64,000 nt of DNA from Candidatus Falkowbacteria bacterium (GTDB lineage Bacteria; Patescibacteriota; Patescibacteriia; Patescibacteriales; UBA12465): the NCBI GenBank assembly GCA_016432645.1, contig CP066698.1:325062-389061 (forward strand), written 5' to 3'. Below, piece after piece: positions 10,089 through 62,487 of the stretch; the stretch's first letter is position 1, and every line of letters begins with the position of its first letter. Below the pieces are notes generated by a model. It was not told the DNA's origin. It searched no databases and worked only from the letters and a program-made list of their open reading frames with translations. The position numbers and the translations under genes were made by a program.

Positions 10089-10418
10089 ATGGACAAAGCA
10101 CAAAATGGTTTAAATGGTCATGCCACAAATGGCATGAAAAAGGTTTTAGCAGACGAAATCGCGGACAACGAAGCCGCTCAAGTGATGGATGCCATCAGGG
10201 GACACTTGCCCAAGCTCAAGGGGAAAAGTAAAGAAAAAGTGATTCAGGGGGTCACAAACTTCCTGGAAAACAACCTGAAACTGACGCATGTCAAAGTTAA
10301 CGTTGTGGAATTCGATAGTGAATTCCGAATTTTTCCATCCTTCAGTCTCAACGGCTCAGTTGTAAACAGTCCGGGGAAGATCATTCACCAAAAAGTCGCC
10401 GCCGCCGTCTATAGCTAA
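10089..10418 (+). CDS. Hypothetical small protein (109 aa)
   Basis: The ORF sits between a perfect consensus promoter and a strong terminator. No family is recognised and no SD precedes the ATG. By eye it uses more G/C-ending codons than its neighbours. Confidence 0.5.
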   Translation: MDKAQNGLNGHATNGMKKVLADEIADNEAAQVMDAIRGHLPKLKGKSKEKVIQGVTNFLENNLKLTHVKVNVVEFDSEFRIFPSFSLNGSVVNSPGKIIHQKVAAAVYS

Positions 10419-17278: not shown

Positions 17279-17659
17279 TTAAAAAACCGTCTTTTTTGGC
17301 TGGCCGATATTAGGCTCAGAATCATAAACCGGCTCAATCAGCGAATATCCCGAAAAGATTTTATCAGCCTTTTTTGTTTCTTCCGAGATAACCGGAACCT
17401 TTAAAGCATAGCCAAGCGCGTTGGCGGTAACTACACCGATACGCAAGGAAGTAAAACTGCCGCCGCGGCTGGCTACCATAATTTTTTTTATATCCGACAA
17501 TTTGAATCTATTAGTTTTTAATAACTTATCAATTGCCGGCAATAATTTTTCTGCCTGGCGATGAGCAAACTTAAATTTTCTGGAAACAATTTTTTTATTG
17601 TCAATAATTAAAGCAATAACAGTTTCCGCTTGCGAGGCAGTATTTATATAAAGGGTCAT
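17279..17659 (-). CDS. tsaB: tRNA t6A37 biosynthesis protein TsaB, short single-domain form
   Basis: TLYINTASQ...IMVASRGGSFTSLRIGVVTANALGYALKVPV matches the N-terminal domain of TsaB/YeaZ. It is only 126 aa, and its start overlaps the dus stop by 4 nt. Confidence 0.7.
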   Translation of the reverse strand: MTLYINTASQAETVIALIIDNKKIVSRKFKFAHRQAEKLLPAIDKLLKTNRFKLSDIKKIMVASRGGSFTSLRIGVVTANALGYALKVPVISEETKKADKIFSGYSLIEPVYDSEPNIGQPKKTVF

Positions 17660-18654
17660 ATAGTTGTTTGATACTCTTTGATAATTTTCTTTAAATCGCT
17701 GAGGCTTTCTACTTTTACCAATTGCTCGCGCAAACGGCTGGCGCCTGGCAGAGATTTAACATACCAGACTAAATGTTTGCGCAACTCAATAATAGCCCCC
17801 GAGCCTTTTATTTTTTCTTGCAGCTGTGCTTGTTTAAACATTAATTTTAAGGTATCCGCTACCGATAAAGATATTTCTTTATTCCGCTTAATTTCTTGGA
17901 ATAGCCAGGGACGCCCTAATATTCCGCGGGCCAAACCGAGGCCATCAGCCTGGCTGGCTTTCATTATTTTTTGAGCGCCAGGCAAATCATTAATCCCGCC
18001 ATTAGCCAAAATTACTCCGGAAAAATATTTACGCGTTTTTTTTATTAATTCGCAATCAGGTTCACCGGCAAATCCCTGATTAACGCTGCGTCCGTGAATC
18101 ATCAGCGCCGCTAGCGGCAAATCGTTAAGCGTTTTTAAAAATTGCAAAGCATCAACATTACCGGACTTAGCTCGAATTTTAATGGATACCGGCAAATTGG
18201 TATTGTTTAAAACCGCCTCAATAACCGCGCGCGCTCGGGGTAAATTTTTCATCAAATCTGAACCAGCTCCCTGCTTGATAACTTTAGAGACCGGACAGCC
18301 AAAATTAATGTCAATTCCATCAGGCCTTATTTCTTTAGTAATAATTCGAGCGGCGGCGGCAAAATGTTCCGGATTGGAGCCAAAAAGCTGGACAACGTAA
18401 TACTTTTCTTTTTGGCGATTAAAATGCAAAAGTTCTAAAGTGGCGCTTTTTATTTTCTGGCGGCTAGATTTATCTTTAGCATAATCGCTATAATACAAAG
18501 CAGTCGCAGAAGCCATCTCGCTATACAAAACATCGGCCCCAAATTTTTTACAAATTTGCCGGAAGGCGGAATCGGTAAAACCGGCCATCGGCGCCAAGGC
18601 TAAAATAGGCTGTTTTTTCTTTTTTAGTTCCAACCAAAAATTTTTCTTAGGCAT
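17656..18654 (-). CDS. dusB: tRNA-dihydrouridine synthase
   Basis: LAPMAGFTDSAFRQICKKFGADVLYSEM, DINFGCP and IHGR motifs. Confidence 0.85.
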   Translation of the reverse strand: MPKKNFWLELKKKKQPILALAPMAGFTDSAFRQICKKFGADVLYSEMASATALYYSDYAKDKSSRQKIKSATLELLHFNRQKEKYYVVQLFGSNPEHFAAAARIITKEIRPDGIDINFGCPVSKVIKQGAGSDLMKNLPRARAVIEAVLNNTNLPVSIKIRAKSGNVDALQFLKTLNDLPLAALMIHGRSVNQGFAGEPDCELIKKTRKYFSGVILANGGINDLPGAQKIMKASQADGLGLARGILGRPWLFQEIKRNKEISLSVADTLKLMFKQAQLQEKIKGSGAIIELRKHLVWYVKSLPGASRLREQLVKVESLSDLKKIIKEYQTTI

Positions 18655-27493: not shown

Positions 27494-27518
27494 ATACCTA
27501 CACCCCAGGTGTTGGTAT
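27494..27518 (+). promoter_or_regulatory. Putative CsoR operator: 25-bp GC-tract pseudo-palindrome ATACCTACACC-CCA-GGTGTTGGTAT
   Basis: The arms ATACCTACACC and GGTGTTGGTAT are reverse complements with one mismatch. The site lies just downstream of the -10 element. The shape (ATACC...C-tract...GGTAT) resembles known CsoR operators. Confidence 0.55.
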
Positions 27519-27534
27519 AATTATAATTAAACAT

Positions 27535-27807
27535 ATGAGCGAAAACAAAAAAGACATCATGATTAATTTTAAAAAAGCCAAAAGCCTAATGGATAAGTTA
27601 ATATCTATGACTGAAGACGGCGAATATTGCATTGACATCATGCAACAGAATCTAGCTGCTATCGGTCTCCTGAAATCCGCCCACCAAATGCTGATGGCCG
27701 GACATCTTAATACCTGCTTTAAAAATGCCATGGCTTCTAAAAACGAAAAATTAAAAGCCAAAATGGTTGAAGAAATTTTAAAAGTTAATAAATTGGCCGC
27801 TAAATAA
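27535..27807 (+). CDS. csoR: CsoR-family Cu(I)-sensing transcriptional repressor
   Basis: A 90-aa product from ATG 27535; the track's 27403 start would overlap rarA and the promoter. Ligands are C32, H57 and C61, with 25 and 4 residue spacing (the C-H-C Cu(I) signature). Confidence 0.8.
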   Translation: MSENKKDIMINFKKAKSLMDKLISMTEDGEYCIDIMQQNLAAIGLLKSAHQMLMAGHLNTCFKNAMASKNEKLKAKMVEEILKVNKLAAK

Positions 27808-27824
27808 GCGGTTGAAATAAAAAT

Positions 27825-29222
27825 ATGCCCAAGCTTGTCGTTCCTATTTCCGGCCTGCATTGCAAGGCCTGTGAAATTTTAACCGAAGACGCCCTTCGGG
27901 AAATTAAGGAAGTATCAAAAGTTAACGTTAATCATAAAACCGGCCTGGCCGAAATAGAATATGAAGGCGATGAACCTAAAATAGCAGAAATTAAAACCGC
28001 TCTGGAAGAAAGCGGCTACGGCTTGGGAAAAATTAAAACCCGGATTGAAAATAAAAATGGACAAAATTTAAACTGTGATTTAACGGAGACCAGGCATCAG
28101 CCAAAAGATTTTAGCTTTTATATTACCGTGATTGCCGCGGTAGCAATTATTTATCTGCTTCTTAATCGCACGACTTCCCTGCCTTTCGGAGGCTTATTAG
28201 AACAGAATTTTTCTTGGCCGCTGGCGATTATTGTCGGCCTAGTGGCCGGGGTTTCAACTTGTCTAGCGCTAGTTGGCGGCTTAGTCTTAAGCCTGGCGGC
28301 TAACTATGCGCAAAACCATCCCGAGGCCACCAAAAAAGAAAAGTTCCGGCCGCACATCTTTTTTAATCTTGGACGCATCGGCGGTTTTTTCTTTCTGGGC
28401 GGCATTTTAGGAGTTATCGGCTCCGCTTTTAAATTATCACCATTAGCCAATTCACTGATAACTATTATTATCGGTTTTGTGGTTTTAATTCTGGGATTGA
28501 AACTGCTGGAGATTTTCCCGAGCCTCGCTCGATTTGATTTTTCGCTGCCAAAAAAATTCGGCAAAATAATAAAAATCAATGACCCGTTTGTTTTAGGGGT
28601 GCTGACTTTTTTCCTGCCCTGCGGCTTCACCCAAGCCATGCAAATATATGCCCTCGGAACCGGAAATTTTCTTCAAGGAGGACTAATTATGGCACTATTT
28701 GCCCTGGGAACAGCTCCAGGATTTTTAGGAATTGGCGGCCTTAGCGCTCTTGGAGGCAAAAAAAAATCCAGCGCCTTCTTTATGGTCGCCGGCATAATCG
28801 TCGTCGCTTTCGGAATTTTCAATTTAGCCAACGGTTATCGCCTCTTTAAAATCTCTTCCGGTTTTGATTTCAACAAGATAGCCCTGAAAACGGAAGCGGA
28901 AACTAAAAATACAAATTCCAACATTGAAGAGGAGGACGGGGTTAGAATAATCAGAATGAAGGAAACTAATCGCGGTTACTCCCCCAATAATTTCACAATC
29001 CTTAAAGGCCAGCCGGTTAAATTCATTATTGATGCCCAAGCGCCATATTCTTGCGCCAGCGCTTTAGTAATTCCCTATCTTAAAATTCAAACCCAATTAA
29101 AACCCGGCGAAAACATCCTGGAATTTACGCCCGATAAAGTTGGAGAAATTCCCTTCTCCTGTTCTATGGGCATGTACACCGGCCAGTTCCTGGTAGTGGA
29201 TGACAAAAGCCAGCTACGCTAA
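27825..29222 (+). CDS. Three-domain membrane protein: HMA (CxxC) domain + TauE/SafE-like permease + C-terminal cupredoxin-like domain
   Basis: N-terminus ISGLHCKACEILTED (HMA fold). It has about 6-8 TM helices including FFLPCGFTQAMQIYALGTG. The C-terminus FTILKGQPVKFII...PGENILEFTPDKVGEIPFSCSMGMYTGQFLVV is cupredoxin-1-like. Confidence 0.7.
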   Translation: MPKLVVPISGLHCKACEILTEDALREIKEVSKVNVNHKTGLAEIEYEGDEPKIAEIKTALEESGYGLGKIKTRIENKNGQNLNCDLTETRHQPKDFSFYITVIAAVAIIYLLLNRTTSLPFGGLLEQNFSWPLAIIVGLVAGVSTCLALVGGLVLSLAANYAQNHPEATKKEKFRPHIFFNLGRIGGFFFLGGILGVIGSAFKLSPLANSLITIIIGFVVLILGLKLLEIFPSLARFDFSLPKKFGKIIKINDPFVLGVLTFFLPCGFTQAMQIYALGTGNFLQGGLIMALFALGTAPGFLGIGGLSALGGKKKSSAFFMVAGIIVVAFGIFNLANGYRLFKISSGFDFNKIALKTEAETKNTNSNIEEEDGVRIIRMKETNRGYSPNNFTILKGQPVKFIIDAQAPYSCASALVIPYLKIQTQLKPGENILEFTPDKVGEIPFSCSMGMYTGQFLVVDDKSQLR

Positions 29223-44326: not shown

Positions 44327-45529
44327 TTAGTACTCAAACCTCCCGTAGGGGGTGTTGAGAATGACATGGTTTTTGTCGTCGTGGCCAGGTTCAACGGAAC
44401 CGAGTTCTGATAATTTTAAACCACAACTGTAAACCGCCGCCTTAACTGCATTAACAAAGAGAATATTATCTTCGCCTACGATATCCACGCCAATACCACA
44501 ATTAAAGGTGGTAAACATATACTGCCATGGCTGTTTCGTTTCTGCCTGAATGAAAAGGAATAACGGAGAGGGTTCGGGCATATTTTTGACATAGGTTACA
44601 TTCTGACCGACATTGACAATTTTAGTTGCCCCGCCGCCGGTATTAATAGATATCCCATGTAACATTTGAAGAATGCCGCGGTCTTTTAATTCCTGAATAA
44701 TTTCCCGAATCACAATTGCCCACTGACGCGTTGGTGAAAGAATCGCCTCACTAATAGTCGCGCCACCCAAAATTTCTGGTTTAGCGCCGGGATAATGGCG
44801 GCCCTTATAAAAACGGCCGTCTCCCAAATCAGGATATTTTTCATTAAAAACCAAATCCATCGCCCCGCCTCTAAGCAGAGTCATGCCATTAGACATACCG
44901 CCGAAGTTTGGTTTATCTTCCCAAACAGCTTGCCCGTCAGAATGAAGACCAAGAATAATGTCACCGACTTTTGTTTGGCCGATAATGACATCTTCTTTAT
45001 CAGCCCAAGCGCTAACTGCGACGTTGAAAACTCCGGACTTAACCTGATAAGGCAGGTCGGCCGTCTCCCCGCCAAAAAATTTGAGATCAAAACCAAAATC
45101 TTTGTAGATTTTGAGTAGTTCCTGAAAACGTTTTTTAATTTGACGGGTAACAATATCTTTAATGTTAGCATTGCCACAATCAAAGATATCAACGATATGA
45201 ATTCGGCCAAAAACGAAACCGGCAGCCGCAATATCGCTAGTATTCATTGATAAACCGTCATCAACCGTACCAGCAAAAACATTTTCATCGCCGTTTTCAT
45301 AGTAGTCTAAAACCCTTTGGATAAACTTACTGCCATCACCGTCGGCGTGCATTGTTGTCCGTCCGTTAGGATTAGAAGGGTCGTCATTAATGTTCACGAA
45401 AGCACCGGGATACATATTATCAATTATGCTTTCAAAATTGGCTTTAATGCCACTTTTATCAGAAGCGACGCCATACTGTTTGTAAAGATCTTCGCTTTGC
45501 GGAGTCTTGTCTGGATTTTCTTGTTCCAT
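44327..45529 (-). CDS. Divergent PurM-fold protein (AIR synthase-related; phosphoribosylformylglycinamidine cyclo-ligase-like)
   Basis: 400 aa. DGDGSKF (compare DGVGTK), GGETADLP (compare GGETAEMP), LSPTRQW, INTGGG and TFNCGIGVDIV follow the order of PurM motifs, but the N-terminus and several blocks are divergent. Confidence 0.6.
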   Translation of the reverse strand: MEQENPDKTPQSEDLYKQYGVASDKSGIKANFESIIDNMYPGAFVNINDDPSNPNGRTTMHADGDGSKFIQRVLDYYENGDENVFAGTVDDGLSMNTSDIAAAGFVFGRIHIVDIFDCGNANIKDIVTRQIKKRFQELLKIYKDFGFDLKFFGGETADLPYQVKSGVFNVAVSAWADKEDVIIGQTKVGDIILGLHSDGQAVWEDKPNFGGMSNGMTLLRGGAMDLVFNEKYPDLGDGRFYKGRHYPGAKPEILGGATISEAILSPTRQWAIVIREIIQELKDRGILQMLHGISINTGGGATKIVNVGQNVTYVKNMPEPSPLFLFIQAETKQPWQYMFTTFNCGIGVDIVGEDNILFVNAVKAAVYSCGLKLSELGSVEPGHDDKNHVILNTPYGRFEY

Positions 45530-47544: not shown

Positions 47545-50500
47545 ATGAAAAAATCCTCTCTTTATACAAATTTTCACGCCAATCAACTGAAGATGGCTAT
47601 CTTTTTGATTGGTTTTTTATTAATTGCAATTCCAGACAAAACCAATGCTAAGTTAATCACTGTCGGCACCGCCTCCGATATTGTAAGTTTTGGGAATAAC
47701 GTCGGCGTTGGTTCAACCGCCCCTAACCAAAAACTGCATATATTCGATAAGGTTTCCAGTTATGCCACAATAAACATCGAAGGGCCAACGGATACAGCCG
47801 ACAAGGGCGCGGCCATTCTTTTTAACGAAGGAAACGGCGCCACTCAATGGGATGGCGGTCTTTACGGATTTAAAGTGGCCTATGATGGAGGCAATAATTA
47901 TTTATTTTTTGAAGGATTTGGCAATGGAACCAGTGCCGGAAAACATTTAAATATCCTGCGTACAGGCAACGTCGGCATCGGTTTAACTAACCCGGGGACA
48001 AAATTAGATATTACCGGAACTCTTCGTAATTCTCTTGCGACCACTCATTCCTTACTCGGCGGAGCTGGCAATGTAATAATCATGGCCGATAACGATGGAT
48101 CATTATTCTCAGCTACTCCAACAGCTTTCACCGCCTCTATTAACGTCAGTACTTTATATCACATTAAGAAGTGGTTTACTCCCCAAACTGGACAAACAAT
48201 TAGTTCCAGCGGCACAACGGTGACGATGCTCAATCCCGTATCCAGCTATCAATTTTCTTCCAGCATGGTTGGCTCCAGGTTAACAATTAACGGTGAAAGT
48301 CGGGTTATTACCGCTTATACTTCAACTTCAGTAGTCACAGTTGATTCAGCTTACAGCACGAACTATAGTGGCGTGTCCGATACTCTTTGGGGTGTTTATA
48401 GCAAGGCCGTAGAAATTGCTAGCGATGGCTCGGTTTCAACTTATTCAGAAACTGGCAGTATGGCGATTAGAAAGCGCTCAGGGGACGGCAATGTTTATAT
48501 TCCAGCCCTATTAGACTCCACTAACAACTACTATCTTCCTTCTTCAGTTCTCTATTTAGATAAAGACTTTCCAATAAAATGGTCAAACTCAACAAGCTAC
48601 AGCGCCAGTTCAGGCAACGATGTCGGTTTACGTAGAACAGCTACTGGAACCTTGGAAGTTTATAATGGCACCAGCACAACCCCAGGAACAGTAGCCGACT
48701 ACAGAGATTTGAATATTAGAAGTTTCAACCCGGCTGGCGGCAATATTGGCATTGGAACCACAACCCCGTCCAATAATAAACTAACCGTTGTTTCCGACCA
48801 AAGCGGGGGCGGAGTAATAAAAGTCCAAAATACCAATATCGCCTCTTGGTCGTCATACGAAATGTTTGATTACGCCGGAGTTCATAAAACAAGTTTTGGC
48901 TATGCTAATCCCAATGCACCAACAGTCGCGGGCCTAGCTCATTTTAGTACTTCCGATGATACTCCTTTTATTATTGCTATCCACGATTTAGAAAAAATTA
49001 GATTTACGACTGAAGGATATATCGGAGTTGCTCAAACTAATCCCAGTCGACCACTCCATATTTCTTCTACTTCCACCGACCTCGTAGCGGCCGGGAACAA
49101 CAACTCAATGGTAATGATTGATGGATTAATGAACTCAACTAGCAGACAACAGTCAGGCATAGTTTCTAGTCCTTATATCAACCCACCGTCGGCCTCAACC
49201 CAAACTTACATCGGTCTTAACTTCATTCCCAATTCCGATTCTCCATATGTTTCAGGTGCCCAAATAATGGGCTTATATGGAGGCGCATACTACTATGGCA
49301 CTAGTACTCTCGGATATGCCTATGGAGGAATTTTTAAAAATTTTGCCAGTGATACCTCCACTATAACTAGAAGTTACGGCGTTTTTATTGATGATGCTTA
49401 CAGGGCGGCTGGCGCTCACATAACTAATAATTATGGCTTATGGGTGGAAAACCAGACTGCCGGCACTAATAATTATGCCATCTATTCTGAAGGAGGAAAA
49501 AATTATTTTGGCGGTAACGTTGGCATTGGAACAACAACACCCTGGAGCAATCTAACAGTTCGCGGCGTTACTAGCGCCCCATCAATCGTCCGAGGAGCAG
49601 CATCAATATTTAGCGTTGCATCTGCCGATGGTGTAGAATTTGCCTTCACAACTGCTACCTCTTCCCCCTGGACTGCTTCTATCCAAGTTAGAGACGTGCC
49701 TGAAGGAAGCGGGGATTTAGCCTATCCTTTAGCCCTAAACCCTGTCGGTGGAAACGTTGGGATTGGAACAGCAGCGCCTAATCAAAAATTAGATATCGCA
49801 GGAAATGTTCATATTAGAGGTGCTGGGACCTTATATAATAATGCTGGGGCCGCCGAACTTCATATTGGTTATGGCATTGCCTCTCCCGGCACTGTCGGCA
49901 GCGTAGCTAGATTAGCGCTTCAGCCATACGGCCACACTGGAGGACCATGGAAATTTGTTACTAGGGACACTGCCGGAGCTGCTTATTTAGATTTTGATTA
50001 TTCATCTCTTCATGCCTTAACATTAGACTCATCAGGAAACGTCGGAATCGGAACTCAGTCACCTAACGTAAAATTATACGTTTCTGGCCAGAGTGTCACT
50101 TTTTTATCAGCCACCAGCTCCAACACAATGTTAATGGGCAGAAATTCAACAGAAAATCTTTACATATATCAAGATGATACTAGCGTGACTTTCGAATCAG
50201 TCCAAGATGAAAATACTGCCGGCTTCGGTAATATGATTTTTAAAGTTGACAATGATGGAACCGCTGATGGTTATTTTGCTTTCCAAAATAAAGCCGCTAC
50301 GAACTTCATGAGAATAACGGCTACTGGCAGCGTTGCCATTGGCACCACTGCTCCGGTCTCCAGATTATCAGTAACAACTTCTACTTTCCTGGATAATACC
50401 CACGCTATTTCTTTTGGTGATAATTTAAACTATTACTACGGTATTGGTATTGCCGGCGGCTCCGGCACCGAAGGAGTTGGTATTTGGGGCGGCTCGGAAG

Positions 50501-50874
50501 GCACTGATAAATCCTTAACTAATCCCAATCTTTTTGTTAAAAGGGGCGGTAATGTTGGCATTGGCACAACAGCTCCAGCAGCTAAACTAGATGTCGCCGG
50601 AACAACAAAACTAGGGACTGCCGGCGGTGCTTTTACCGCCATGGGAACATGTACCATCGCTTCGACCGCAATTTCAACTACAAAAACAAATTATACCTGT
50701 ACCGGCGTTCCCGCCTCAACCGCTGTGGCCGTAAATTGCAGTGGCGCAAACACTCAGAGTGGCGCCGGAACTTTATATTGCCGTGCCACTGGAACAGCCG
50801 ACCAGGTTGCCTGCAATACTTCAGCCGCCAATACCACGGCGATGACCTGGACTTGTATGTGGATTCAGCCGTAA
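47545..50874 (+). CDS. Giant secreted/surface fibre-like protein with nine G-N-V-G-I-G-T-x-x-P-x-x-K-L-x-V motifs and a Cys-rich C-terminal module
   Basis: 1109 aa with N-terminal signal/anchor MAIFLIGFLLIAIPDKTNA. Motif copies include GNNVGVGSTAPNQKLHI, GNVGIGLTNPGTKLDI, GGNIGIGTTTPSNNKLTV, GGNVGIGTTTPWSNLTV, GGNVGIGTAAPNQKLDI, GNVGIGTQSPNVKLYV, GSVAIGTTAPVSRLSV and GGNVGIGTTAPAAKLDV. All 6 Cys residues lie in the last ~70 residues. Confidence 0.6.
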   Translation: MKKSSLYTNFHANQLKMAIFLIGFLLIAIPDKTNAKLITVGTASDIVSFGNNVGVGSTAPNQKLHIFDKVSSYATINIEGPTDTADKGAAILFNEGNGATQWDGGLYGFKVAYDGGNNYLFFEGFGNGTSAGKHLNILRTGNVGIGLTNPGTKLDITGTLRNSLATTHSLLGGAGNVIIMADNDGSLFSATPTAFTASINVSTLYHIKKWFTPQTGQTISSSGTTVTMLNPVSSYQFSSSMVGSRLTINGESRVITAYTSTSVVTVDSAYSTNYSGVSDTLWGVYSKAVEIASDGSVSTYSETGSMAIRKRSGDGNVYIPALLDSTNNYYLPSSVLYLDKDFPIKWSNSTSYSASSGNDVGLRRTATGTLEVYNGTSTTPGTVADYRDLNIRSFNPAGGNIGIGTTTPSNNKLTVVSDQSGGGVIKVQNTNIASWSSYEMFDYAGVHKTSFGYANPNAPTVAGLAHFSTSDDTPFIIAIHDLEKIRFTTEGYIGVAQTNPSRPLHISSTSTDLVAAGNNNSMVMIDGLMNSTSRQQSGIVSSPYINPPSASTQTYIGLNFIPNSDSPYVSGAQIMGLYGGAYYYGTSTLGYAYGGIFKNFASDTSTITRSYGVFIDDAYRAAGAHITNNYGLWVENQTAGTNNYAIYSEGGKNYFGGNVGIGTTTPWSNLTVRGVTSAPSIVRGAASIFSVASADGVEFAFTTATSSPWTASIQVRDVPEGSGDLAYPLALNPVGGNVGIGTAAPNQKLDIAGNVHIRGAGTLYNNAGAAELHIGYGIASPGTVGSVARLALQPYGHTGGPWKFVTRDTAGAAYLDFDYSSLHALTLDSSGNVGIGTQSPNVKLYVSGQSVTFLSATSSNTMLMGRNSTENLYIYQDDTSVTFESVQDENTAGFGNMIFKVDNDGTADGYFAFQNKAATNFMRITATGSVAIGTTAPVSRLSVTTSTFLDNTHAISFGDNLNYYYGIGIAGGSGTEGVGIWGGSEGTDKSLTNPNLFVKRGGNVGIGTTAPAAKLDVAGTTKLGTAGGAFTAMGTCTIASTAISTTKTNYTCTGVPASTAVAVNCSGANTQSGAGTLYCRATGTADQVACNTSAANTTAMTWTCMWIQP

Positions 50875-50932: not shown

Positions 50933-52366
50933 ATGCCTAACATCCAAGAGACTCCGGATTCTCAAATCGGAGTAATCAAAAAAACCAAAAGCGTCTTTCT
51001 CGCTCCCGTGAAATCAAAAGGGGTTTTAGCCTCGGTAGGAGTGGTGTTAATTGCTCTTGTCGCTCTGATATTCGTAAATTATTTTTCCCTCATGAAAACT
51101 CGCCAGGAATTACAAAATTATTCAGCTATCACCGCAAATCTGGAAAATGAATTAAAAACCATTTCCAAGAGGTCTACTTTAGTTTCCAGCTGGCGCAGTT
51201 TTGGCGACAGTTTCTCTTCATACGCTTATGTTTCCAAAGAGGAAACTGATATGTTTTTTGATGAAAGAGTTACTGCTTTCAGTTTTCCGCCGGTCTATAG
51301 TTTTAATTCCGTTTCTGGATGCGAAAATGCAAGCTGCGATTTAAAATCAAACTCTCTAGTGGCCACGGACCAGGATAGCAGCCAACAAATAAGCAAAGTC
51401 CCCGCCGAATTAAAGGATAAAAAAATTATTTCTTCCAGCCTTAATAAATTAAATTCCCTACAAGTGGCCTCCTTTATTGTCGCTGACGGCCAGGAAGAAA
51501 GGGCTTATGTTTATTTTTTTGATGGCAAAAAATTTACCCCGATTATCACCGCTAACACGGAAAATCAAATAATCACCAAATATAGTCGTGGTGGTGGCGC
51601 CATCGTAGCTGGTGGCGACGACAAGGATTTTATTATTCTCTATATCGGTTATGAGGGCTTAGGTTTCCATTATAAAAATGGGCAATTAAAAAATATTTCT
51701 GATTTCTTTGGCCTGAGAGTGGCTGACAATGGCTTCAAACCATACATAATTAAAGATGGTAAGGATAATAGTGCCGTTTGGTATATTTTAAGCTTAAATA
51801 GCAGTAAACCAAAACTCATAAAACTCTGGCAAAATGGAACACCGGAAATAGTCGGCGCCGTAGATTTAAGCAATGTTTTTGATGATACCGAAGGAGCCTT
51901 AGTCGCTTTTGCCTCCGGAGATAAGGCGCAAGAAATTAAATTTATCTTCAAAAAAGACGGCAGCACCAATGTTAATGCTCCCGCACAAATTTTAATTCCC
52001 GGCGCTTCATCACAGACAGAAGTAAAAATGCCTGCTTCCCTGTCACCTTATGAGTTAAGATTATTCTCAGACAAAGGCTTTGATAATACGATTGATCGTT
52101 CTGTAGTATCAGTAAATCTCAACGAAGCGCAAGGAGCCGTTACTAAGGCTAAAATAAACGAAATCGGCGTCAACGGCGAAGTAAAGTTATTCCTTTCTAA
52201 TTCGGATAAGATATTTGTTGAAACCAAAGAAAATGAAGAAATTAGCTTTTCTATGCATGGCCGCGACTTATTCTGGAGAACTGATTTCCCTAAGGGCCAG
52301 AGCAGCCAATATTCTCCCTGGTTTGATAATATCAACTACTTAGACTATTATTTACAAGTCGATTAA
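50933..52366 (+). CDS. Membrane-anchored hypothetical protein, probably co-transcribed with the fibre-like gene
   Basis: 477 aa with a single TM helix (VLASVGVVLIALVALIFVNYF). No terminator occurs in the 58-nt gap after the 1109-aa gene. No family is recognised. Confidence 0.5.
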   Translation: MPNIQETPDSQIGVIKKTKSVFLAPVKSKGVLASVGVVLIALVALIFVNYFSLMKTRQELQNYSAITANLENELKTISKRSTLVSSWRSFGDSFSSYAYVSKEETDMFFDERVTAFSFPPVYSFNSVSGCENASCDLKSNSLVATDQDSSQQISKVPAELKDKKIISSSLNKLNSLQVASFIVADGQEERAYVYFFDGKKFTPIITANTENQIITKYSRGGGAIVAGGDDKDFIILYIGYEGLGFHYKNGQLKNISDFFGLRVADNGFKPYIIKDGKDNSAVWYILSLNSSKPKLIKLWQNGTPEIVGAVDLSNVFDDTEGALVAFASGDKAQEIKFIFKKDGSTNVNAPAQILIPGASSQTEVKMPASLSPYELRLFSDKGFDNTIDRSVVSVNLNEAQGAVTKAKINEIGVNGEVKLFLSNSDKIFVETKENEEISFSMHGRDLFWRTDFPKGQSSQYSPWFDNINYLDYYLQVD

Positions 52367-53586
52367 TTACTCCCGGCGATAAACCCCGTACTCCAGGCGA
52401 CTTGCAGATTAAAGCCGCCAGTCGGGCCGGCAATATCCAATACTTCCCCGGCTAAATACAGATTAGAAATTATTTTAGAGCTCATTGACTTAGCATTGAC
52501 TTCCTCCAGACTAAGGCCGCCGACAGTAACCATCGCTCTATCATAACCGGAAAAATTAATAATTGTAAGTTTAAAATCCTTGATACTTTCAAGGATTTTT
52601 TTTCGCTGGCTGCGACTAATAACCTTGGATTTTAAATTTTCATTAATACCAGAAGTATTCAATATAAAAACAGCTAATCGCGCCGGAATAATTTCTTCCA
52701 GACTATTTTTAACAAATTTATTATCTTTAGAAAAAAGTAAAATTAATAATTTATCTAAATCTTCTAAAGTAATCTCCGGCTGAAAATCTAGGCGCAATTC
52801 AAAAGTTTGATGCTGATTAAAATCCAAAAAACGGCTGAGATTTAAAGCCGCCGGACCGCTCAGCCCAGAAGCGGTAAAAATTACCGCCCCCTGCTCTACC
52901 GCTAACTTTTTATTAGCCGCGAGTAGACTAAGACTAACATTATTTAAACTTAGACCTTCTAACTCTTTAACCTTGGAGTTATTAACTAGAATGGGCGCTA
53001 AGCCGGGATATAGCGGCATTATCGTATGACCAAGATTTTTGAGCCACCGATAAGCATCGCCGCTGGAGCCGGTTGCCGGATAGGACTGGCCGCCAGTGGC
53101 AATTAAAAAGCGGGCAGCACTTATCTCTTCCCCGCTAGACAAAATAAGCTTCTTAATTAAATTATCTTGAACAACAAAATCTTTAACTTCACATTCCGTC
53201 CTAATTATTCCGCCGGCCGCTTTTATGTCTCTAACAAAAACGCCCAAAATATCGGCCGCCAAATTACTTTCGGGAAAAACTTTATTATCAGCCTCAGTTT
53301 TTAAACGGACGCCGCGGCTGGCAAAAAAATCCATTATTTCTGAAACGCCAAAGCGGCTGAATATCGGAATTAAAAATTTAGCAGCCGGGCCATAGCTTTT
53401 AGCCAGTACGCGATAATCTGGAATATTATTAGTGATATTACAGCGCCCACCGCCGGCCAGCAATAATTTAACTCCCAGACGCTTGTTCTTTTCCAGTAAT
53501 AAAACCTGGCGCCCCTTTTCAGCCGCTTGCAAAGCGGCCATAAGTCCGGCCGGACCGCCACCGATAACCACTAAATCATATTTCAT
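52363..53586 (-). CDS. NAD(P)/FAD-dependent oxidoreductase, HI0933/BaiN-like flavoprotein
   Basis: YDLVVIGGGPAGLMAA dinucleotide fold, GGGRCNITN, and the C-terminal LYLAGEVLDIAGPTGGFNLQ. Confidence 0.85.
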   Translation of the reverse strand: MKYDLVVIGGGPAGLMAALQAAEKGRQVLLLEKNKRLGVKLLLAGGGRCNITNNIPDYRVLAKSYGPAAKFLIPIFSRFGVSEIMDFFASRGVRLKTEADNKVFPESNLAADILGVFVRDIKAAGGIIRTECEVKDFVVQDNLIKKLILSSGEEISAARFLIATGGQSYPATGSSGDAYRWLKNLGHTIMPLYPGLAPILVNNSKVKELEGLSLNNVSLSLLAANKKLAVEQGAVIFTASGLSGPAALNLSRFLDFNQHQTFELRLDFQPEITLEDLDKLLILLFSKDNKFVKNSLEEIIPARLAVFILNTSGINENLKSKVISRSQRKKILESIKDFKLTIINFSGYDRAMVTVGGLSLEEVNAKSMSSKIISNLYLAGEVLDIAGPTGGFNLQVAWSTGFIAGSN

Positions 53587-53607: not shown

Positions 53608-54903
53608 TTAGTAAGCTTGATTTTTCAGACTTTCTAAGTCTTTTTTAATAGCTTCAACCAGTAATTCCGGAGTAGCAAATTTTTCCAGCTCCCTGATTTT
53701 GCCCAAAACCTCAACTTGAAGATTTTCGCCGTAAATATCACTCGAAAAATCAACTATTAAAATTTCCAAAGAAACTTCTTCTTTAAAAACATCCTTAAAA
53801 CCAAAATGCATCAAACCGGAATATGACCGATTATCAAACATTATCTTAACGGCATAAACGCCGTGGACAATATCTAAATCGGTTTTATCCAAATTGGCGG
53901 TCGGATAACCTAACAGCTTGCCTCGCCCCTGGCCATGGATTACTTTTCCGGAAAAAATTATTTTTTTAGTCCGGCCTAATATGGAGATTTTATAAAAAGC
54001 TAAGAGTAAAACGGCTAGTGCCGTCAGCTGCATCCAGTTCAAATAATTATGATTAAAAATATAATCCAAAACTAAAGCCGAAAATGGCCAAAATAATTCC
54101 AAAATAGTCGCTGCCGAAGCCGGAACGCGCCGCAAACCAAAATAATAAATAAACATCGAGCCGGCGCCGCTGGTTAAAACGATTAAACCCAAGAGGCTCC
54201 ATTGCTTAATACTCACTAGTGGCAAAGAACCAAAAGAACCGCTAACCAAAACTAGAATGATTGCTAAAATTGAAGTCAAGCCAAAACGCAAAGCGGCCAC
54301 TGCCTTATAATCTAGATGGTTAGAAATCCGTTTGCCAAAAACGGTTGATGAACCAAAAGCAAAAGCAGCAATAAAGGCGAATAAAGCACCATTATGGAGC
54401 CAGTCAATTCCCCAAAAATCAGCGCCCAAATTAGCAAACGCGATAAAATAAGAAGCGGCGATGGCGGCGATGGCCCAGCCATAAAACTTTTTCGGAAGCC
54501 TCTCACCTAAAATTAAACGCGCTAAAAGCAGAGCAAAAATCGGCTGTAATTTTTGAAGAATAACCACGGTCGCGAAACTGACTTCCCCGTCCATCGCGGC
54601 AAAAAAAGCTTTAGTGATAAAAACTGTTCCAATTAAACCACCAAACAAACTAACCCAACCGAGAGCCAGCCAACTTTTATGACTAAGGGTTTTTATCTTC
54701 GGCCAGAAAATAAAAACAAAAGGCGAAAGCACGATAAAACCGAGAAGATGTTCCAGCATAACCACCAGCTCGGCCGGTAAAACATAGAACTGCGGTCTAA
54801 TGAATAAACCGTCAATGCTCCAAAATAAAGCGGCGAGCATAATCGCCACCGAGCCGGCTAATTGTCCGGGCTTAAATTTTAACCTTAAATTGCTTGCAGA
54901 CAT
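53608..54903 (-). CDS. Fusion protein: EamA/DMT-family transporter (N-terminal ~300 aa, ~10 TM) + riboflavin kinase domain (C-terminal ~125 aa)
   Basis: The C-terminus GKVIHGQGRGKLLGYPTANL...HGVYAVKI...GLMHFG...LEILIVDFSSDIYGENLQVEVLGKIRELEKF is the RibF kinase domain (PTAN motif). The N-terminus is a double-EamA membrane domain. Start MSASNL at 54903 avoids overlap with the DUF1294 gene. Confidence 0.75.
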   Translation of the reverse strand: MSASNLRLKFKPGQLAGSVAIMLAALFWSIDGLFIRPQFYVLPAELVVMLEHLLGFIVLSPFVFIFWPKIKTLSHKSWLALGWVSLFGGLIGTVFITKAFFAAMDGEVSFATVVILQKLQPIFALLLARLILGERLPKKFYGWAIAAIAASYFIAFANLGADFWGIDWLHNGALFAFIAAFAFGSSTVFGKRISNHLDYKAVAALRFGLTSILAIILVLVSGSFGSLPLVSIKQWSLLGLIVLTSGAGSMFIYYFGLRRVPASAATILELFWPFSALVLDYIFNHNYLNWMQLTALAVLLLAFYKISILGRTKKIIFSGKVIHGQGRGKLLGYPTANLDKTDLDIVHGVYAVKIMFDNRSYSGLMHFGFKDVFKEEVSLEILIVDFSSDIYGENLQVEVLGKIRELEKFATPELLVEAIKKDLESLKNQAY

Positions 54904-54911
54904 GTATTTAA

Positions 54912-55202
54912 TTATTTGTTTAATAAGTATAAATATATTAACCAGGCGGCCGCTAAATTTTGCAAAAATAATAAGGGGATGCCTATTAAGAAATACCATT
55001 TCCTGGTTTTATGGCGAAAAACGAACATTCCCAGATAAACACCCAAAGCGCCAAAAGCAGATCCTAAAAAGAATAGCAAGCCTTCGGAAATTCGGGAAGA
55101 GCCAGGATTGGCAGATTTTAATTTATCCAAAAACATCAAGAAAAAAACGATTAAATTAGTAGCCAGCAAAAAGGCTAAGATTAGAAGCAAAGTATTGTTC
55201 AT
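54912..55202 (-). CDS. DUF1294 family small membrane protein
   Basis: LMFLDKLKS..RISEGLLFFLGSAFGALGVYLGMFVFRHKTRKWYF matches the DUF1294 pattern (RIxE...FRHKTxKxxF). Confidence 0.75.
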   Translation of the reverse strand: MNNTLLLILAFLLATNLIVFFLMFLDKLKSANPGSSRISEGLLFFLGSAFGALGVYLGMFVFRHKTRKWYFLIGIPLLFLQNLAAAWLIYLYLLNK

Positions 55203-55243
55203 TTTTTTAATATTGCCTTATAATTATAGCATAATTACCATAT

Positions 55244-57022
55244 ATGCCCATCCTCCTGCAGGTGAACAACTTAAGCAAGGAATACAGCGGCCAAAAAATA
55301 TTTTCCGGCCTGTCTTTTACTATTTCCGAGAAACAGAAAATCGGCGTTATCGGCCGCAATGGCGCCGGCAAATCAACGCTATTTAAAATAATTAGCGGTG
55401 AAGAACAGGCGGATAATGGCGAGATTATCATTCATGAAGAAGCCAATATCGGCTATTTGAAGCAAAATCCAGATTGGCTGGATACGGAAAGTGCTCTGGA
55501 CTATTTAATTAGGCACAGCGGCCGACCGGAATGGCGGGCGCGCCAGCTGGCCAGTAAGTTTGAATTAGACGCCGAAAAGCTCGCCCAAACCGCCAGCGGG
55601 CTCTCCGGTGGCTGGCGTATGCGCTTACGTTTAACAGCGATGCTTCTCAAGGAGCCGAATCTCTTCTTGCTAGACGAACCGAGTAACTATTTGGATTTAA
55701 ACACCCAGATTCTCTTAGAGGATTATTTAAATTCTTATCGCGGCAGTTTTTTAATCATTTCCCACGACCGTGAATTTTTAAAAAGAACCTGTAAAGAAAC
55801 CATTGAAATTTCTAAAACCGGCTGCTACCACTATCCCGGCAACATTGAAGCCTACTTGGCTTTTAAAGAACAAAAGTTGAGCACTCTTATCAAGGCGAAT
55901 GAGAGTCTGGAGCGCCAGCAACAACATTGGCAGGAGTTTGTTGATCGCTTTCGCTATAAAGCTTCTAAGGCTAAACAGGCGCAAGCGGTAATCCGCAAAA
56001 TTACCAAACTGGAAGCTAAAAGAATAACTATCGAGCATGAAGCCGGAATTACCCGCATCATCATCCCGCCAATTGCCCGTAAGAATAATTTTGCCTTAAA
56101 GATAAACGACCTCAGTATTGGTTATGACAATCAAAGCATCGTTACAAATATTGATTTTGACTGCCGTTCCGGAGAAAAATTGGCAATTTTAGGGCTCAAC
56201 GGCAGCGGTAAAACCACTTTAATAAAAACATTGACCGGAAAATTAAATCCTTTAGCCGGTTCATTTCGTTTAGCCGCCAACAGCCGCTTAGCTTATCATG
56301 GCGAAGAAGAAATAGCTCAAATGAACGGCCAAGAACAAGCCGGCGATTTCTTGCGCCGCATGGCCGCCGCTGATTTAAAAACGGAAGCAGTTTTAAAAAT
56401 GGCTGGAGATTTTTTATTTTCCGAAGAAAATTTAAAAAAACCGATTTCCGTCCTTTCCGGCGGCGAACGCTCGCGCTTATTGCTCGCCGGACTACTCTTA
56501 TCTAAACCGGATATTCTGATTTTAGATGAACCGACTTGCCATCTTGATTTTGAGACCACTGAAGCTTTAGCCGGCGGCTTGCATAAATTTAACGGCACCG
56601 TAATTTTTGCCAGCCATGACAGAACTTTTGCCAGCCTCATCGCCACCGGGATTGTGGAAATAAAAAATGGCCAAGCCAAAAGAAAGCATGAAGATTATGA
56701 AGATTATGTCATTAATCTAGAAAAAGAACTGGCCCAGAAACGTGCTCTAGAAAAAACTAAATTACCGGAAATAAAAGCGGAGCTAAAAACCAATGACCGA
56801 GAAAAATATTTAGCTAATCGCGCCCGCCAAAAAGAAATTCAAACTCTAGAAAAAGACCTAGCTAAAATGCAAGCTTATAAAACCGAGCTCTTGGAATATT
56901 TTTTGGAACACTACGAAAACTACCGCCCGGAAAAAGTAGCGGAACTAGAGGAGCTCAAGCGCCGCATCGCCGATAAAGAAGATCTATGGCTAATGCTAAA
57001 TGAAGAAAATAAAGAAAACTAA
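55244..57022 (+). CDS. ABC-F family ATPase (two ABC domains, no TMD; translation-factor-like)
   Basis: Two Walker A sites (GRNGAGKST, GLNGSGKTT), two signatures (LSGGWRMR, LSGGERSR) and a charged coiled-coil C-terminal extension. Confidence 0.9.
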   Translation: MPILLQVNNLSKEYSGQKIFSGLSFTISEKQKIGVIGRNGAGKSTLFKIISGEEQADNGEIIIHEEANIGYLKQNPDWLDTESALDYLIRHSGRPEWRARQLASKFELDAEKLAQTASGLSGGWRMRLRLTAMLLKEPNLFLLDEPSNYLDLNTQILLEDYLNSYRGSFLIISHDREFLKRTCKETIEISKTGCYHYPGNIEAYLAFKEQKLSTLIKANESLERQQQHWQEFVDRFRYKASKAKQAQAVIRKITKLEAKRITIEHEAGITRIIIPPIARKNNFALKINDLSIGYDNQSIVTNIDFDCRSGEKLAILGLNGSGKTTLIKTLTGKLNPLAGSFRLAANSRLAYHGEEEIAQMNGQEQAGDFLRRMAAADLKTEAVLKMAGDFLFSEENLKKPISVLSGGERSRLLLAGLLLSKPDILILDEPTCHLDFETTEALAGGLHKFNGTVIFASHDRTFASLIATGIVEIKNGQAKRKHEDYEDYVINLEKELAQKRALEKTKLPEIKAELKTNDREKYLANRARQKEIQTLEKDLAKMQAYKTELLEYFLEHYENYRPEKVAELEELKRRIADKEDLWLMLNEENKEN

Positions 57023-62118: not shown

Positions 62119-62487
62119 CTACTTTTTAATGCCCTCGATGAGGACGCGGACCAAGCCATAAGCGGAGAAAATGATAGCGAGTCCAATGGCCGACCAGACA
62201 ATTGTGTCCCGGCCTTTCTTAACTTTATCGGCACTACCGGAAGAAGTCATCCAGGTTATGCCACCATAAACAAACATAAGCAAAGCAATGGAACCGACAA
62301 CCCCCAGAACTGTGTTAATGATCTTACCAATTAAGGCTTGGGGGGTCTCAATGGTACCGAGAGGGTTGGTTAAACAAGTGCCGGAACCACTGGGGCAGCT
62401 AGGCGTATTATCTGCTAAAACCGGAATAGCAACAAATATTGAAAAGGTTATGAGACTAAGAAAAAGAAAAGATAATAATTTTTTCAT
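62119..62487 (-). CDS. TrbC/VirB2-like type IV secretion pilin (CPR-type small pilin)
   Basis: 122 aa with a signal peptide, a Cys pair (SCPSGSGTC), LTNPLG, and two TM helices separated by a WMTSSGSADKVKKGRDT loop. This is the layout I recall for the T4SS_pilin family. Confidence 0.6.
   Translation of the reverse strand: MKKLLSFLFLSLITFSIFVAIPVLADNTPSCPSGSGTCLTNPLGTIETPQALIGKIINTVLGVVGSIALLMFVYGGITWMTSSGSADKVKKGRDTIVWSAIGLAIIFSAYGLVRVLIEGIKK

Follow-up and report, generated by a model that had tools for sequence, protein, structure and literature searches.

A DMT permease fused to a riboflavin kinase: a probable riboflavin uptake protein of Patescibacteria

A single open reading frame on the minus strand of the 64-kb window (the whole stretch of DNA analysed here, 64,000 nucleotides, to which all positions refer) joins, in this order, a ten-helix double-EamA permease of the drug/metabolite transporter (DMT) superfamily, a linker of about five residues and a monofunctional riboflavin kinase. 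We consider it probable that the protein combines a riboflavin uptake permease with a cytoplasmic riboflavin kinase and so takes up the vitamin with immediate phosphorylation (metabolic trapping). In such a mechanism, riboflavin would cross the permease and would be phosphorylated at once to FMN by the ATP-type kinase on the cytoplasmic face. Since FMN is charged and presumably is not a substrate of the permease, the vitamin would be trapped in the cell and the inward gradient would be kept. We infer that riboflavin is the substrate of this particular protein, that transport is directed inward, that the vitamin is trapped or channelled between the two domains and that the host is a riboflavin auxotroph. 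The fusion protein probably serves its small-genome Patescibacteria host as the gateway for flavin cofactors.

Much of microbial diversity belongs to CPR bacteria and DPANN archaea, which are believed to obtain most of their vitamins from other cells. To our knowledge, the vitamin transporters of both groups are almost all annotated merely as generic “EamA/DMT family” proteins. If the proposed function is correct, riboflavin would enter CPR and DPANN cells through members of a large DMT clade, always with a riboflavin kinase that is adjacent, co-regulated or fused. The fused form would be, within the literature searched, the first case of a covalent link between a vitamin transporter and its substrate-trapping enzyme; it would offer a compact model for the coupling of transport to metabolism, a simple one-gene means of riboflavin import and FMN synthesis, and a clue for growth media of uncultured CPR lineages.

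The fusion gene and its occurrence

The gene occupies positions 53608..54903 of the minus strand, starts with an ATG at 54903 and codes for 431 amino acids plus the stop, as judged from the ORF list, the sequence and Pfam matches to EamA (twice) and Flavokinase. The two EamA repeats scored 99.4 bits (cut-off 28.2), and the Flavokinase domain (PF01687, amino acids 314-428) scored 105.6 bits (cut-off 19.6). An earlier analysis of the same DNA from its letters alone (the sequence-only reading) had proposed a single ORF with an EamA/DMT permease and a C-terminal riboflavin kinase; Pfam, the homologues and the AF2 model all bear this out, and the peptide motifs quoted in it are indeed present, with GYPTANL encoded at 53890-53910. 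That the coding strand of the fusion ORF is the minus strand is an addition to that reading. A longer version of the gene, starting at 54999, was considered and rejected, since it would run into the upstream DUF1294 gene and disagrees with the sizes of the homologues (406-451 amino acids, most of them about 420-435).

The domain search and taxonomic survey recommended in the sequence-only reading placed both Pfam domains above their cut-offs and found the architecture in 25 GTDB species genomes, all of which we read as Patescibacteria, despite labels such as Falkowbacteria or Komeilibacteria on some of them. Both domains are present in all of the at least 120 listed homologue clusters (defined at 90% identity), which come from independent samples and sources, and about 20 more representatives of the fusion, with identities as low as 33%, were retrieved at the 50% clustering level. 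Long contigs bearing the fusion include CAYYDR010000001.1 (678 kb), CAZTUJ010000001.1 (626 kb), ERZ21878242 contig_1 (911 kb), FLOH01000015.1 (831 kb) and CAZVQS010000002.1 (572 kb).

A one-base error could in principle produce an apparent fusion, and related organisms do carry separate neighbouring permease and kinase genes, 41 of 50 such pairs being co-oriented in the set of 81 loci described below. There is nevertheless only a negligible probability that errors of sequencing or assembly united two separate genes into the single ORF. The identical in-frame junction recurs in the at least 120 listed clusters, in the 25 species genomes and in the more distant representatives, and the two domains evolve in step: family members that are more identical to the window protein in one domain are also more identical to it in the other (r = 0.90). 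The frameshift or assembly error against which the sequence-only reading had cautioned is effectively ruled out by this recurrence.

Predicted structure and topology of the two domains

The permease part (amino acids 1-309; 53977..54903, minus strand) was delimited by hydropathy, AF2 and Foldseek. Hydropathy detected ten transmembrane segments and the AF2 model of the fusion protein (pLDDT 88.4, pTM 0.82) contains ten helices, spanning residues 12-309, followed by a β-barrel, which agrees with the approximately ten helices estimated previously. Lysines plus arginines number 3, 3, 4, 3 and 2 in the even loops and 1, 1, 0, 1 and 0 in the odd loops, i.e., 15 versus 3 in total. By these positive-inside counts and with ten transmembrane segments, the N-terminus is predicted to be cytoplasmic, as is the C-terminus and, therefore, the kinase; the cytoplasmic orientation that metabolic trapping calls for is thus supported by the predicted topology.

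With two tandem EamA repeats above the gathering score, ten helices and a DMT fold, the permease part belongs to the 10-TMS type of DMT/EamA proteins. Foldseek matched it to DMT transporters of known structure, namely 5y78 (TPT), 9gsl (SLC35B1), 7paf (LicB) and 5i20 (YddG), with target-normalised TM-scores of 0.63-0.75. The ten-helix fold is common to these proteins and the window protein, but their identity to it is only 12-17%, their substrates are different and they carry no fused enzyme domain. Foldseek retrieved no PDB entry matching both the permease and the kinase parts of the AF2 model. Residues that are invariant in fused as well as unfused members of the clade include W28, D31, T97, Q117-K118-x-Q120-P121, R206, Y254 and E269.

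The linker (amino acids 310-314, GRTKK; 53962..53976, minus strand) connects the end of the tenth transmembrane helix, at about residue 309, to the first β-strand of the kinase (residues 315-322 in the AF2 model). The riboflavin kinase domain itself (amino acids 315-431; 53611..53961, minus strand), recognised by PF01687 and Foldseek, consists of a β-barrel and a C-terminal helix. Direct reading of the sequence locates the PTAN motif of the kinase active site (P334-T335-A336-N337) at 53893..53904 and the codon of Glu380 at 53764..53766, both on the minus strand; in E. coli RibF, Glu380 falls on the “LEVHLLD” segment of the alignment. We take Glu380 to be the counterpart of the catalytic Glu of riboflavin kinases, presumably E268 of C. 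ammoniagenes FADS. With the motifs GQGRG...GYPTAN and E380, the glycine-rich flap, PTAN and the catalytic Glu are all there. Of 134 fusion proteins, at least 95% keep G323, G327, G332, T335, N337, G348, Y350, G368, E380 and Y391, and at least 80% keep P334 and A336.

The window kinase is 33% identical to the C-terminal half of E. coli RibF, and Foldseek matched it to the riboflavin kinase (RFK) modules 3op1, 5a8a (rmsd 2.6), 1q9s and 1n06. It shares its Pfam family with the modules of bacterial bifunctional RibF/RibC proteins (C. ammoniagenes 5a8a, S. pneumoniae 3op1 and T. maritima 1mrz) and with eukaryotic RFK (1q9s and 1n06). The fold is the same (rmsd 2.4-3.7 over about 125-135 residues at 30-37% identity), and the PTAN motif and the catalytic Glu are kept on both sides. 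Since the catalytic residues are conserved and the fold matches solved riboflavin kinase modules, the kinase domain is likely active.

Two features set the window kinase apart from its known relatives. Unlike soluble RibF or RFK, it is anchored to a membrane permease, and, unlike RibF/RibC, it has no N-terminal FMN adenylyltransferase (FMNAT) module, so its product can be FMN at most and not FAD. In agreement with the sequence-only reading, Pfam found no FMN adenylyltransferase (FAD_syn, PF06574) match in the fusion protein, NCBIfam RibF models aligned to it only by their C-terminal ca. 120 positions (approximately 170-316) and far below cut-offs, and the N-terminal (FMNAT) half of E. coli RibF used as query found no match in the window.

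One could envision that the C-terminal domain is instead catalytically inert and senses flavins or nucleotides to gate the permease by feedback. The linker of about five residues would permit direct allosteric contact, and RbkR sets a precedent for the regulatory use of the riboflavin kinase fold; yet RbkR itself is still an active kinase (PMC5397151). Moreover, the catalytic and substrate-binding motifs (flap, PTAN, GxY and Glu) are conserved in at least 95% of the 134 members, Pfam and tblastn revealed no other riboflavin kinase in the window, and unfused relatives are paired with an ordinary small kinase gene. A sensor-only role is thus very improbable.

Flavin-related genomic context of the permease clade

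Four separate genomic links support riboflavin as the substrate of the DMT clade to which the permease part belongs; they are not fully independent of each other, as they share loci and derive from a single sample biased towards kinases. First, members of the clade are fused to ATP-type PF01687 kinases. Second, in four clusters (P0143 and P0271-P0273), the same clade is fused to the archaeal CTP-dependent riboflavin kinase PF01982; the PF01687-type and PF01982-type kinases have no mutual sequence match. Third, in contigs of Aenigmatarchaeota and Woesearchaeota, the transporter is encoded by a stand-alone gene that comes right after, or shares 4 nt with, a HTH+PF01982 gene of the type of RbkR, an experimentally characterised riboflavin kinase/regulator (PMC5397151). 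Fourth, 17 of 81 related loci have an FMN riboswitch directly in front of the transporter gene, with scores (68-101 bits) at or above the Rfam gathering score, and a profile built from these 17 aptamers detected 8 further sub-threshold FMN elements. One of the 17 loci (L040) contains a fusion gene (P0130); the riboswitch-bearing relatives are only 31-44% identical to the window protein in the permease part. The proposal of the sequence-only reading that the fusion is a DMT riboflavin importer coupled to phosphorylation is thus supported, at the level of genome comparison, by fusions to a second kinase family, RbkR operons, adjacent kinase genes and FMN riboswitches.

The set of 81 loci consists of L040 and 80 metagenome loci, and the locus scan was run with a 5-sequence alignment. 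Eight of the loci contain fusions, and in 50 a separate kinase ORF lies beside the transporter gene (23 downstream, 18 upstream, 7 divergent and 2 convergent); these ORFs are 94-280 amino acids long from stop to stop, most of them 110-155. Similarity to a full fusion protein determined the ranking of the 80 metagenome loci, which enriches for kinase-containing loci. The resulting 72% kinase adjacency is thus a maximum, and the minimum of kinase association is 37% (57 of 154 relatives). In L075, L080, L084, L096, L109 and L115, the riboswitch separates the permease gene from a kinase gene that is divergent or upstream. Most aptamers are followed by a hairpin and a U-run or abut the start codon. 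Such platforms fit FMN-off control, which is expected for an importer, as it is for biosynthesis genes.

The same platforms bear on the direction of transport. Many characterised DMT/DME proteins are exporters, clade members have weak NCBIfam matches to the exporters YedA and YddG, and in one protein (P0173) a permease of the same type is fused to a HAD-IB phosphatase-like domain, which could suit dephosphorylation-coupled export. The permease might then export riboflavin or FMN, e.g., for extracellular redox chemistry or detoxification, with the kinase preparing or sensing the exported molecule. However, an exporter would be expected to be ON under excess FMN, while terminators or platforms occluding the start codon are typical of FMN-off control, and phosphorylation prior to export would waste ATP and create a charged species. 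In addition, the hosts belong to the CPR and DPANN organisms with small genomes (contigs of 0.57-0.96 Mb), and such organisms generally have no vitamin biosynthesis. Export of flavins is therefore decidedly improbable.

EamA proteins are highly diverse in substrates, and it can be argued that the permease carries another metabolite and that a housekeeping riboflavin kinase became attached to it by neutral gene fusion. Some close stand-alone homologues from bacteria (L033, L034 and L037) have neither flavin neighbours nor a riboswitch, and one unfused member of the clade (L038) is located near an NMN-adenylyltransferase-like gene and FolB. A neutral accident would, however, not account for independent fusions to two distinct kinase families, for operons with RbkR in two phyla of DPANN archaea, for neighbouring kinase genes in four different orientations and for FMN riboswitches specifically in front of the permease gene, even when a kinase gene lies next to it on the other side of the riboswitch. 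We regard such an unrelated substrate as improbable and retain uptake of riboflavin as the preferred reading. The CTP_transf_like gene of L038 was also considered as a RibL-type FAD synthase and rejected, since in NCBIfam it matches archaeal-type NMN adenylyltransferases, with scores under the cut-offs.

A tighter form of coupling, group translocation, appears rather doubtful. In this case, the kinase site would be docked on the cytoplasmic mouth of the permease by the linker of about five residues, riboflavin would be handed directly to the kinase and released only as FMN, with an obligatory coupling of transport to phosphorylation within one polypeptide. Such a principle, akin to that of the PTS, would have evolved independently on at least two occasions, with an ATP-type and a CTP-type kinase, in CPR bacteria and DPANN archaea, both of them radiations of ultra-small cells.

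Known systems and the gene neighbourhood

A DMT riboflavin transporter, RibN, is said to have been described by Garcia-Angulo et al. in 2013 in Rhizobium leguminosarum, Ochrobactrum and Vibrio. A passage of PMC10557607 cites RibN as an EamA-domain (DMT) membrane protein, in line with the sequence-only reading, which placed it in the same superfamily, and a passage of PMC4418817 states that RibN imports riboflavin and that its gene was found via an FMN riboswitch. RibN and the window protein share the EamA/DMT permease architecture; no RibN-named NCBIfam model matched the window protein or the clade members. An FMN riboswitch upstream of the gene is common to RibN and members of the window clade, but not to the window gene itself. 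RibN stands alone as a permease and has been reported from Proteobacteria only, while the window protein is from Patescibacteria and carries a fused kinase.

Archaeal RibK/RbkR (Rodionova et al. 2017, PMC5397151) offers a parallel to the window architecture through the RbkR-type operons and the PF01982 fusions of the same DMT clade. The RbkR kinase itself is CTP-dependent, belongs to PF01982 and has no sequence match to the window kinase, and the published RbkR regulon includes RibU and the MFS transporter RibT but no DMT transporter (PMC5397151).

In mechanism, though not in structure, the proposed function resembles that of Pnu systems. Uptake by Pnu facilitators (PnuC with NadR; PnuX/RibM for riboflavin) is made one-way by intracellular phosphorylation of the vitamin, which is the same metabolic trapping logic. 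The Pnu transporter fold is unrelated, as the membrane part of the window protein matches only EamA in Pfam and DMT proteins by structure. Furthermore, transporter and kinase are separate proteins in Pnu systems, whereas those of the window are covalently joined by about five residues. The riboflavin transporter ImpX is related to RFT2/SLC52 and not to DMT. The searchable full-text literature contained no description of a fusion between a DMT/EamA protein and a riboflavin kinase, nor of the clade as a flavin transporter, which matches the sequence-only reading, whose author was aware of no characterised transporter-riboflavin kinase fusion.

Pfam searches and tblastn with E. coli RibF revealed no riboflavin (rib) biosynthesis gene, FAD_syn domain, separate ribF or second kinase in the 64-kb window; the Pfam scan covered every non-nested ORF of at least 90 amino acids except 10089-10418 and 27498-27860. 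FMN- and FAD-dependent enzymes are nevertheless encoded there, namely Dus and an HI0933-like protein. An FMN adenylyltransferase, which would carry out the step from FMN to FAD, was found neither in the window nor near any of about 120 loci fetched. No FMN riboswitch was detected in the window, either at the Rfam gathering score or with the profile from the 17 verified aptamers, and none was detected at close relatives of the window gene.

The fusion gene appears to be co-transcribed with the genes of a DUF1294 membrane protein and of an FAD-dependent HI0933-like enzyme. The latter, a flavoprotein of the HI0933-like/aminoacetone oxidase family (52363..53586, minus strand; PF03486, 269.6 bits; TIGR00275, 414.8 bits), begins 21 nt past the stop codon of the fusion and is a probable co-transcribed flavin consumer. 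Its position immediately downstream and on the same strand is as the sequence-only reading had it, but the arrangement is conserved only among close relatives. The gene directly adjoins the fusion in L004-L009 and L011, stands next to it in divergent orientation in L024, is separated from it by 7 kb in L010 and is missing from the other loci. We considered it as a conserved partner and rejected this role, since adjacency is limited to relatives with at least 78% identity plus L024 and is not clade-wide.

On the other side, 8 nt upstream of the fusion, lies the gene of the small DUF1294 membrane protein (54912..55202, minus strand; PF06961, 66.7 bits), which is the probable first gene of the fusion operon. 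A DUF1294 homologue is found upstream of the fusion in L004-L009, L011, L014, L015, L018 and L028 and also adjoins the unfused clade member of L038. In L015 and L018, another gene is located between the two; it was inspected as a possible flavin enzyme but actually codes for a Gly/Arg-rich CxxC zinc-ribbon protein. Shortly before the start of the DUF1294 gene, a consensus scan picked out a promoter-like site (55223..55250, minus strand), TGGGCA and TG-TATAAT separated by 16 nt, which agrees with the consensus at 10 of 12 positions, includes an extended -10 TG and is a candidate by consensus match only.

The transporter-kinase gene and its neighbours

The ORF that the sequence-only reading had placed at 53608-54903 was confirmed on the minus strand: it starts with an ATG at 54903, ends with a stop codon at 53608-53610 and encodes 431 aa. 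A longer start, at 54999, was rejected, as it overlaps the upstream gene and homologue lengths (406-451 aa) give it no support. By Pfam, the protein contains a pair of EamA repeats, at 99.4 bits against a cut-off of 28.2, and Flavokinase at aa 314-428, at 105.6 bits against 19.6. No FAD_syn domain was detected in the protein by Pfam, in agreement with the earlier remark that the FMN adenylyltransferase (FMNAT) domain of FAD synthetases is absent, and NCBIfam RibF models aligned only over their C-terminal ~120 positions, far under the cut-offs. When the two halves of E. coli RibF were used as queries, the FMNAT (N-terminal) half matched nothing anywhere in the window, while the kinase half was 33% identical to the window kinase. 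The latter is an ordinary member of PF01687 which, unlike bacterial RibF, has no FMNAT partner.

As had also been noticed, an FAD-binding flavoprotein gene (HI0933-like/TIGR00275; 52363-53586, minus strand) lies directly downstream, 21 nt from the fusion gene and on the same strand. A gene for a small DUF1294 membrane protein (Pfam; 54912-55202, minus strand) ends 8 nt upstream. Since a promoter-like site (consensus match) just precedes the DUF1294 gene, all three probably belong to a single operon. The HI0933-like neighbour is retained in close relatives of the fusion only. Of the 25 genome loci, 11 (L004-L009, L011, L014, L015, L018, L028) have a DUF1294 homologue upstream of the fusion, and in locus L038 one lies directly downstream of an unfused relative; DUF1294 may be an accessory subunit. 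In two loci, DUF1294 and the fusion are separated by a gene (L015 9174-9896, L018 9307-9846) whose Gly/Arg-rich product has paired CxxC motifs and ends in a Lys-rich tail.

Flavin users encoded near the fusion are the FAD-dependent HI0933-like protein of the putative operon and the FMN-dependent Dus (17656-18654). No FMN riboswitch was found in the window, and its ORFs of at least 90 aa (10089-10418 and 27498-27860 left out) yielded neither a rib gene for biosynthesis nor an FMNAT nor a further kinase. The window itself thus gives no direct clue to the permease substrate.

Conservation and predicted structure of the fusion

A search of 5.8 billion proteins retrieved 556 relatives, and both Pfam domains were present in all 120 matches listed (60-93% identity). 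The named homologues among these come from Patescibacteria (CPR), Falkowbacteria or Parcubacteria MAGs and are labelled just "EamA family transporter" or "riboflavin kinase". Scanning of one genome per species located the fusion in 25 genomes, including Falkowbacteria and Komeilibacteria, and ~20 further representatives at the 50%-identity clustering level retain it, down to 33% identity. In 134 full-length fusions, the identities of the permease and kinase parts to the window protein co-vary (r = 0.90); therefore, the protein evolves as one unit. Given the recurrence in homologues and genomes and the co-varying domains, an assembly artefact joining two genes is excluded. Among small-genome contigs (0.6-0.7 Mb) with the CPR-type gene (L010, L012, L015, L023, L027), several are recorded as "uncultured Gammaproteobacteria" and one as "Saccharimonadales", and one protein (P0039) is labelled "Proteiniphilum sp."; wrong taxonomic labels or contaminated bins are the probable cause. 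One 251-aa protein, P0247, consists of nothing but two tandem, nearly identical Flavokinase domains.

Hydropathy analysis revealed ten transmembrane segments in the window protein, with 3, 3, 4, 3 and 2 Lys+Arg residues in the even-numbered loops and 1, 1, 0, 1 and 0 in the odd-numbered ones. Both termini, and hence the kinase, are predicted to be cytoplasmic. In an AlphaFold2 model (92-sequence alignment; pLDDT 88.4, pTM 0.82), the chain forms ten helices as far as residue 309, then a beta-barrel at 315-404 and a C-terminal helix. Because the permease-kinase linker is very short (~5 residues), direct hand-over of substrate from permease to kinase is plausible. Foldseek matched the membrane part to the DMT structures TPT, SLC35B1, LicB and YddG and the C-terminal part to riboflavin-kinase modules of S. 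pneumoniae and C. ammoniagenes FADS and to human and yeast RFK; no solved structure spanning both parts was retrieved.

The glycine-rich flap, the T and N of PTAN, GxY, Glu380 and Tyr391 are intact in at least 95% of the family, which argues that the kinase is active and neither a relic nor solely a sensor. That the C-terminal domain serves as a non-catalytic sensor is unlikely, given that these catalytic residues are conserved and that no other kinase was found in the window.

Flavin links in the wider permease clade

The decisive evidence on the substrate comes not from the window but from the clade of fused and stand-alone permeases related to its permease part, where flavin-specific fusion, operon and riboswitch links are found. 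In P0143, a permease part 36% identical to the window protein is joined to a C-terminal PF01982 domain, the archaeal-type CTP-dependent riboflavin kinase; the same architecture occurs in three more clusters (P0271-P0273) and is represented by locus L030 (6001-7287). Since PF01687- and PF01982-type kinases have no sequence match to each other, the two fusions count as independent: this permease clade has joined a riboflavin kinase on at least two occasions. Among the stand-alone relatives of P0143 are DPANN archaeal proteins. In three contigs, an HTH+PF01982 gene comes immediately before the permease gene and forms a tight operon with it (L032 4339-5942, L035 4330-5948, L036 1834-3377), with a 4-nt overlap in one; these are from Aenigmatarchaeota, a 1.1-Mb contig of the same gene order and Woesearchaeota. 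The HTH+PF01982 architecture is that of RbkR, a characterised riboflavin kinase/regulator, whose published regulon comprises RibU and an MFS transporter and no DMT protein (PMC5397151).

A distant fusion, P0130 (35% identity, 572-kb contig, locus L040), has a complete FMN riboswitch 60 nt upstream (L040 7823-7940; 68.2 bits versus the Rfam gathering score of 66.2, E ~1e-13). A metagenome scan seeded with permease motifs alone yielded 154 relatives, and the best 80 of them together with L040 formed a sample of 81 loci. Eight of these carry fusions; a separate kinase gene lies just downstream of the permease gene in 23, just upstream in 18 (often with overlapping stop and start codons), divergently in 7 and convergently in 2, overlapping cases of either order being classed by hand from coordinates. 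The permease is alone in the remaining 23, ~10 of them on truncated contigs. Because the best 80 were ranked by similarity to a whole fusion protein, which favours kinase-bearing loci, the resulting 72% kinase adjacency is an upper bound, the floor being at least 57/154 (37%). The separate kinase ORFs are mostly 110-155 aa long (range 94-280, stop-to-stop), and no FMNAT-domain homologue was found in any of the 81 loci.

An Rfam scan of all 81 loci detected FMN riboswitches in 17 (68-101 bits), all on the coding strand directly before the permease gene (for example, L112 1294-1413, L071 1352-1478 and L084 1270-1394 among the 16 besides L040), in some loci separating the permease from a divergent or upstream kinase gene. 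With a profile derived from these aptamers, eight more elements, below the Rfam threshold, were recovered at the equivalent position; around the window gene and its close relatives it found none. In most cases, a GC hairpin and a U-run come after the aptamer, or the aptamer directly adjoins the start codon, a layout that, judged from sequence, is that of FMN-off switches of riboflavin import and synthesis genes. Where relatives of one riboswitch-linked stand-alone permease carry a name, it is Candidatus Roizmanbacteria; therefore, the unfused riboswitch-controlled module is also a CPR feature. FMN riboswitches directly upstream of DMT permease genes occur in Roizmanbacteria-like and other CPR bacteria.

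Proposed function and further observations

The proposal that the fusion couples import to phosphorylation is supported by independent comparative evidence: PF01982 fusions, RbkR operons, FMN riboswitches and kinase neighbours. A permease for an unrelated substrate, to which a housekeeping kinase became attached by accident, cannot account for these four separate kinds of flavin linkage and is improbable. An exporter, which we consider slightly less probable still, would be in keeping with the habits of the DMT family and with P0173, in which a permease is fused to a HAD phosphatase, and is at odds with the off-type riboswitch layout and the small host genomes. P0173 (574 aa) is a clade member with a HAD-IB phosphatase-like domain in place of the kinase and a weak match, far under the cut-off (23.6 bits), to a phosphatase model of riboflavin metabolism related to YcsE; it might transport flavins coupled to dephosphorylation, or be unrelated.

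The evidence best supports a riboflavin importer that phosphorylates the vitamin with its cytoplasmic tail as it comes in. Riboflavin would enter through the permease, the kinase tail would convert it to FMN, and FMN formation would trap it. Riboflavin as the cargo of this particular protein, inward transport, accumulation driven by phosphorylation and a host unable to make the vitamin are inferred. The fusion may be a vitamin group-translocation device. The proposed working principle is that of Pnu-type facilitators and their partner kinases (PnuC with NadR, PnuX/RibM), but the fusion has a different fold and its kinase is covalently joined. The nearest named transporter, likened here by description, is RibN, an EamA protein (PMC10557607) whose gene was found through an FMN riboswitch (PMC4418817); RibN is stand-alone and has been reported in Proteobacteria only, whereas the window protein is fused and patescibacterial. 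A literature search of partial coverage returned no account of such a fusion, nor any that links this DMT clade to flavin transport; in public databases, proteins of this architecture can be seen under generic names. On the proposed reading, the known pairing of a riboflavin transporter with a riboflavin kinase here takes the form of one protein. The proposal gives a role to a large transporter clade of CPR and DPANN whose annotation is generic, and it is directly testable with one cloned gene.

No FMNAT of the RibF N-terminal type was found beside any of ~120 permease/kinase loci (the window and L001-L120), despite FAD-dependent enzymes encoded nearby. The hosts of two unfused relatives (L038 5001-7467, a CPR lineage, and L039 1646-2581) read UGA as a sense codon: the genes have 13 and 9 in-frame UGAs, respectively, where relatives have Gly, a pattern that fits genetic code 25. 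Downstream of the L038 permease gene come DUF1294, a gene resembling archaeal-type NMN adenylyltransferases, and FolB; together they look like a small cluster related to vitamins.

Elsewhere in the window, ORFs 47545-50874 (plus strand, 1109 aa), 50933-52366 (plus, 477 aa), 44327-45529 (minus, 400 aa) and 6356-7801 (minus, 481 aa) have no Pfam match; the 477-aa ORF is convergent with the HI0933-like gene, with a 4-nt overlap. A small protein encoded at 62119-62487 (minus strand) matches the type IV secretion system pilin/TrbC-VirB2 families (45.3 bits) and is of interest as the CPR organism may attach to host cells.
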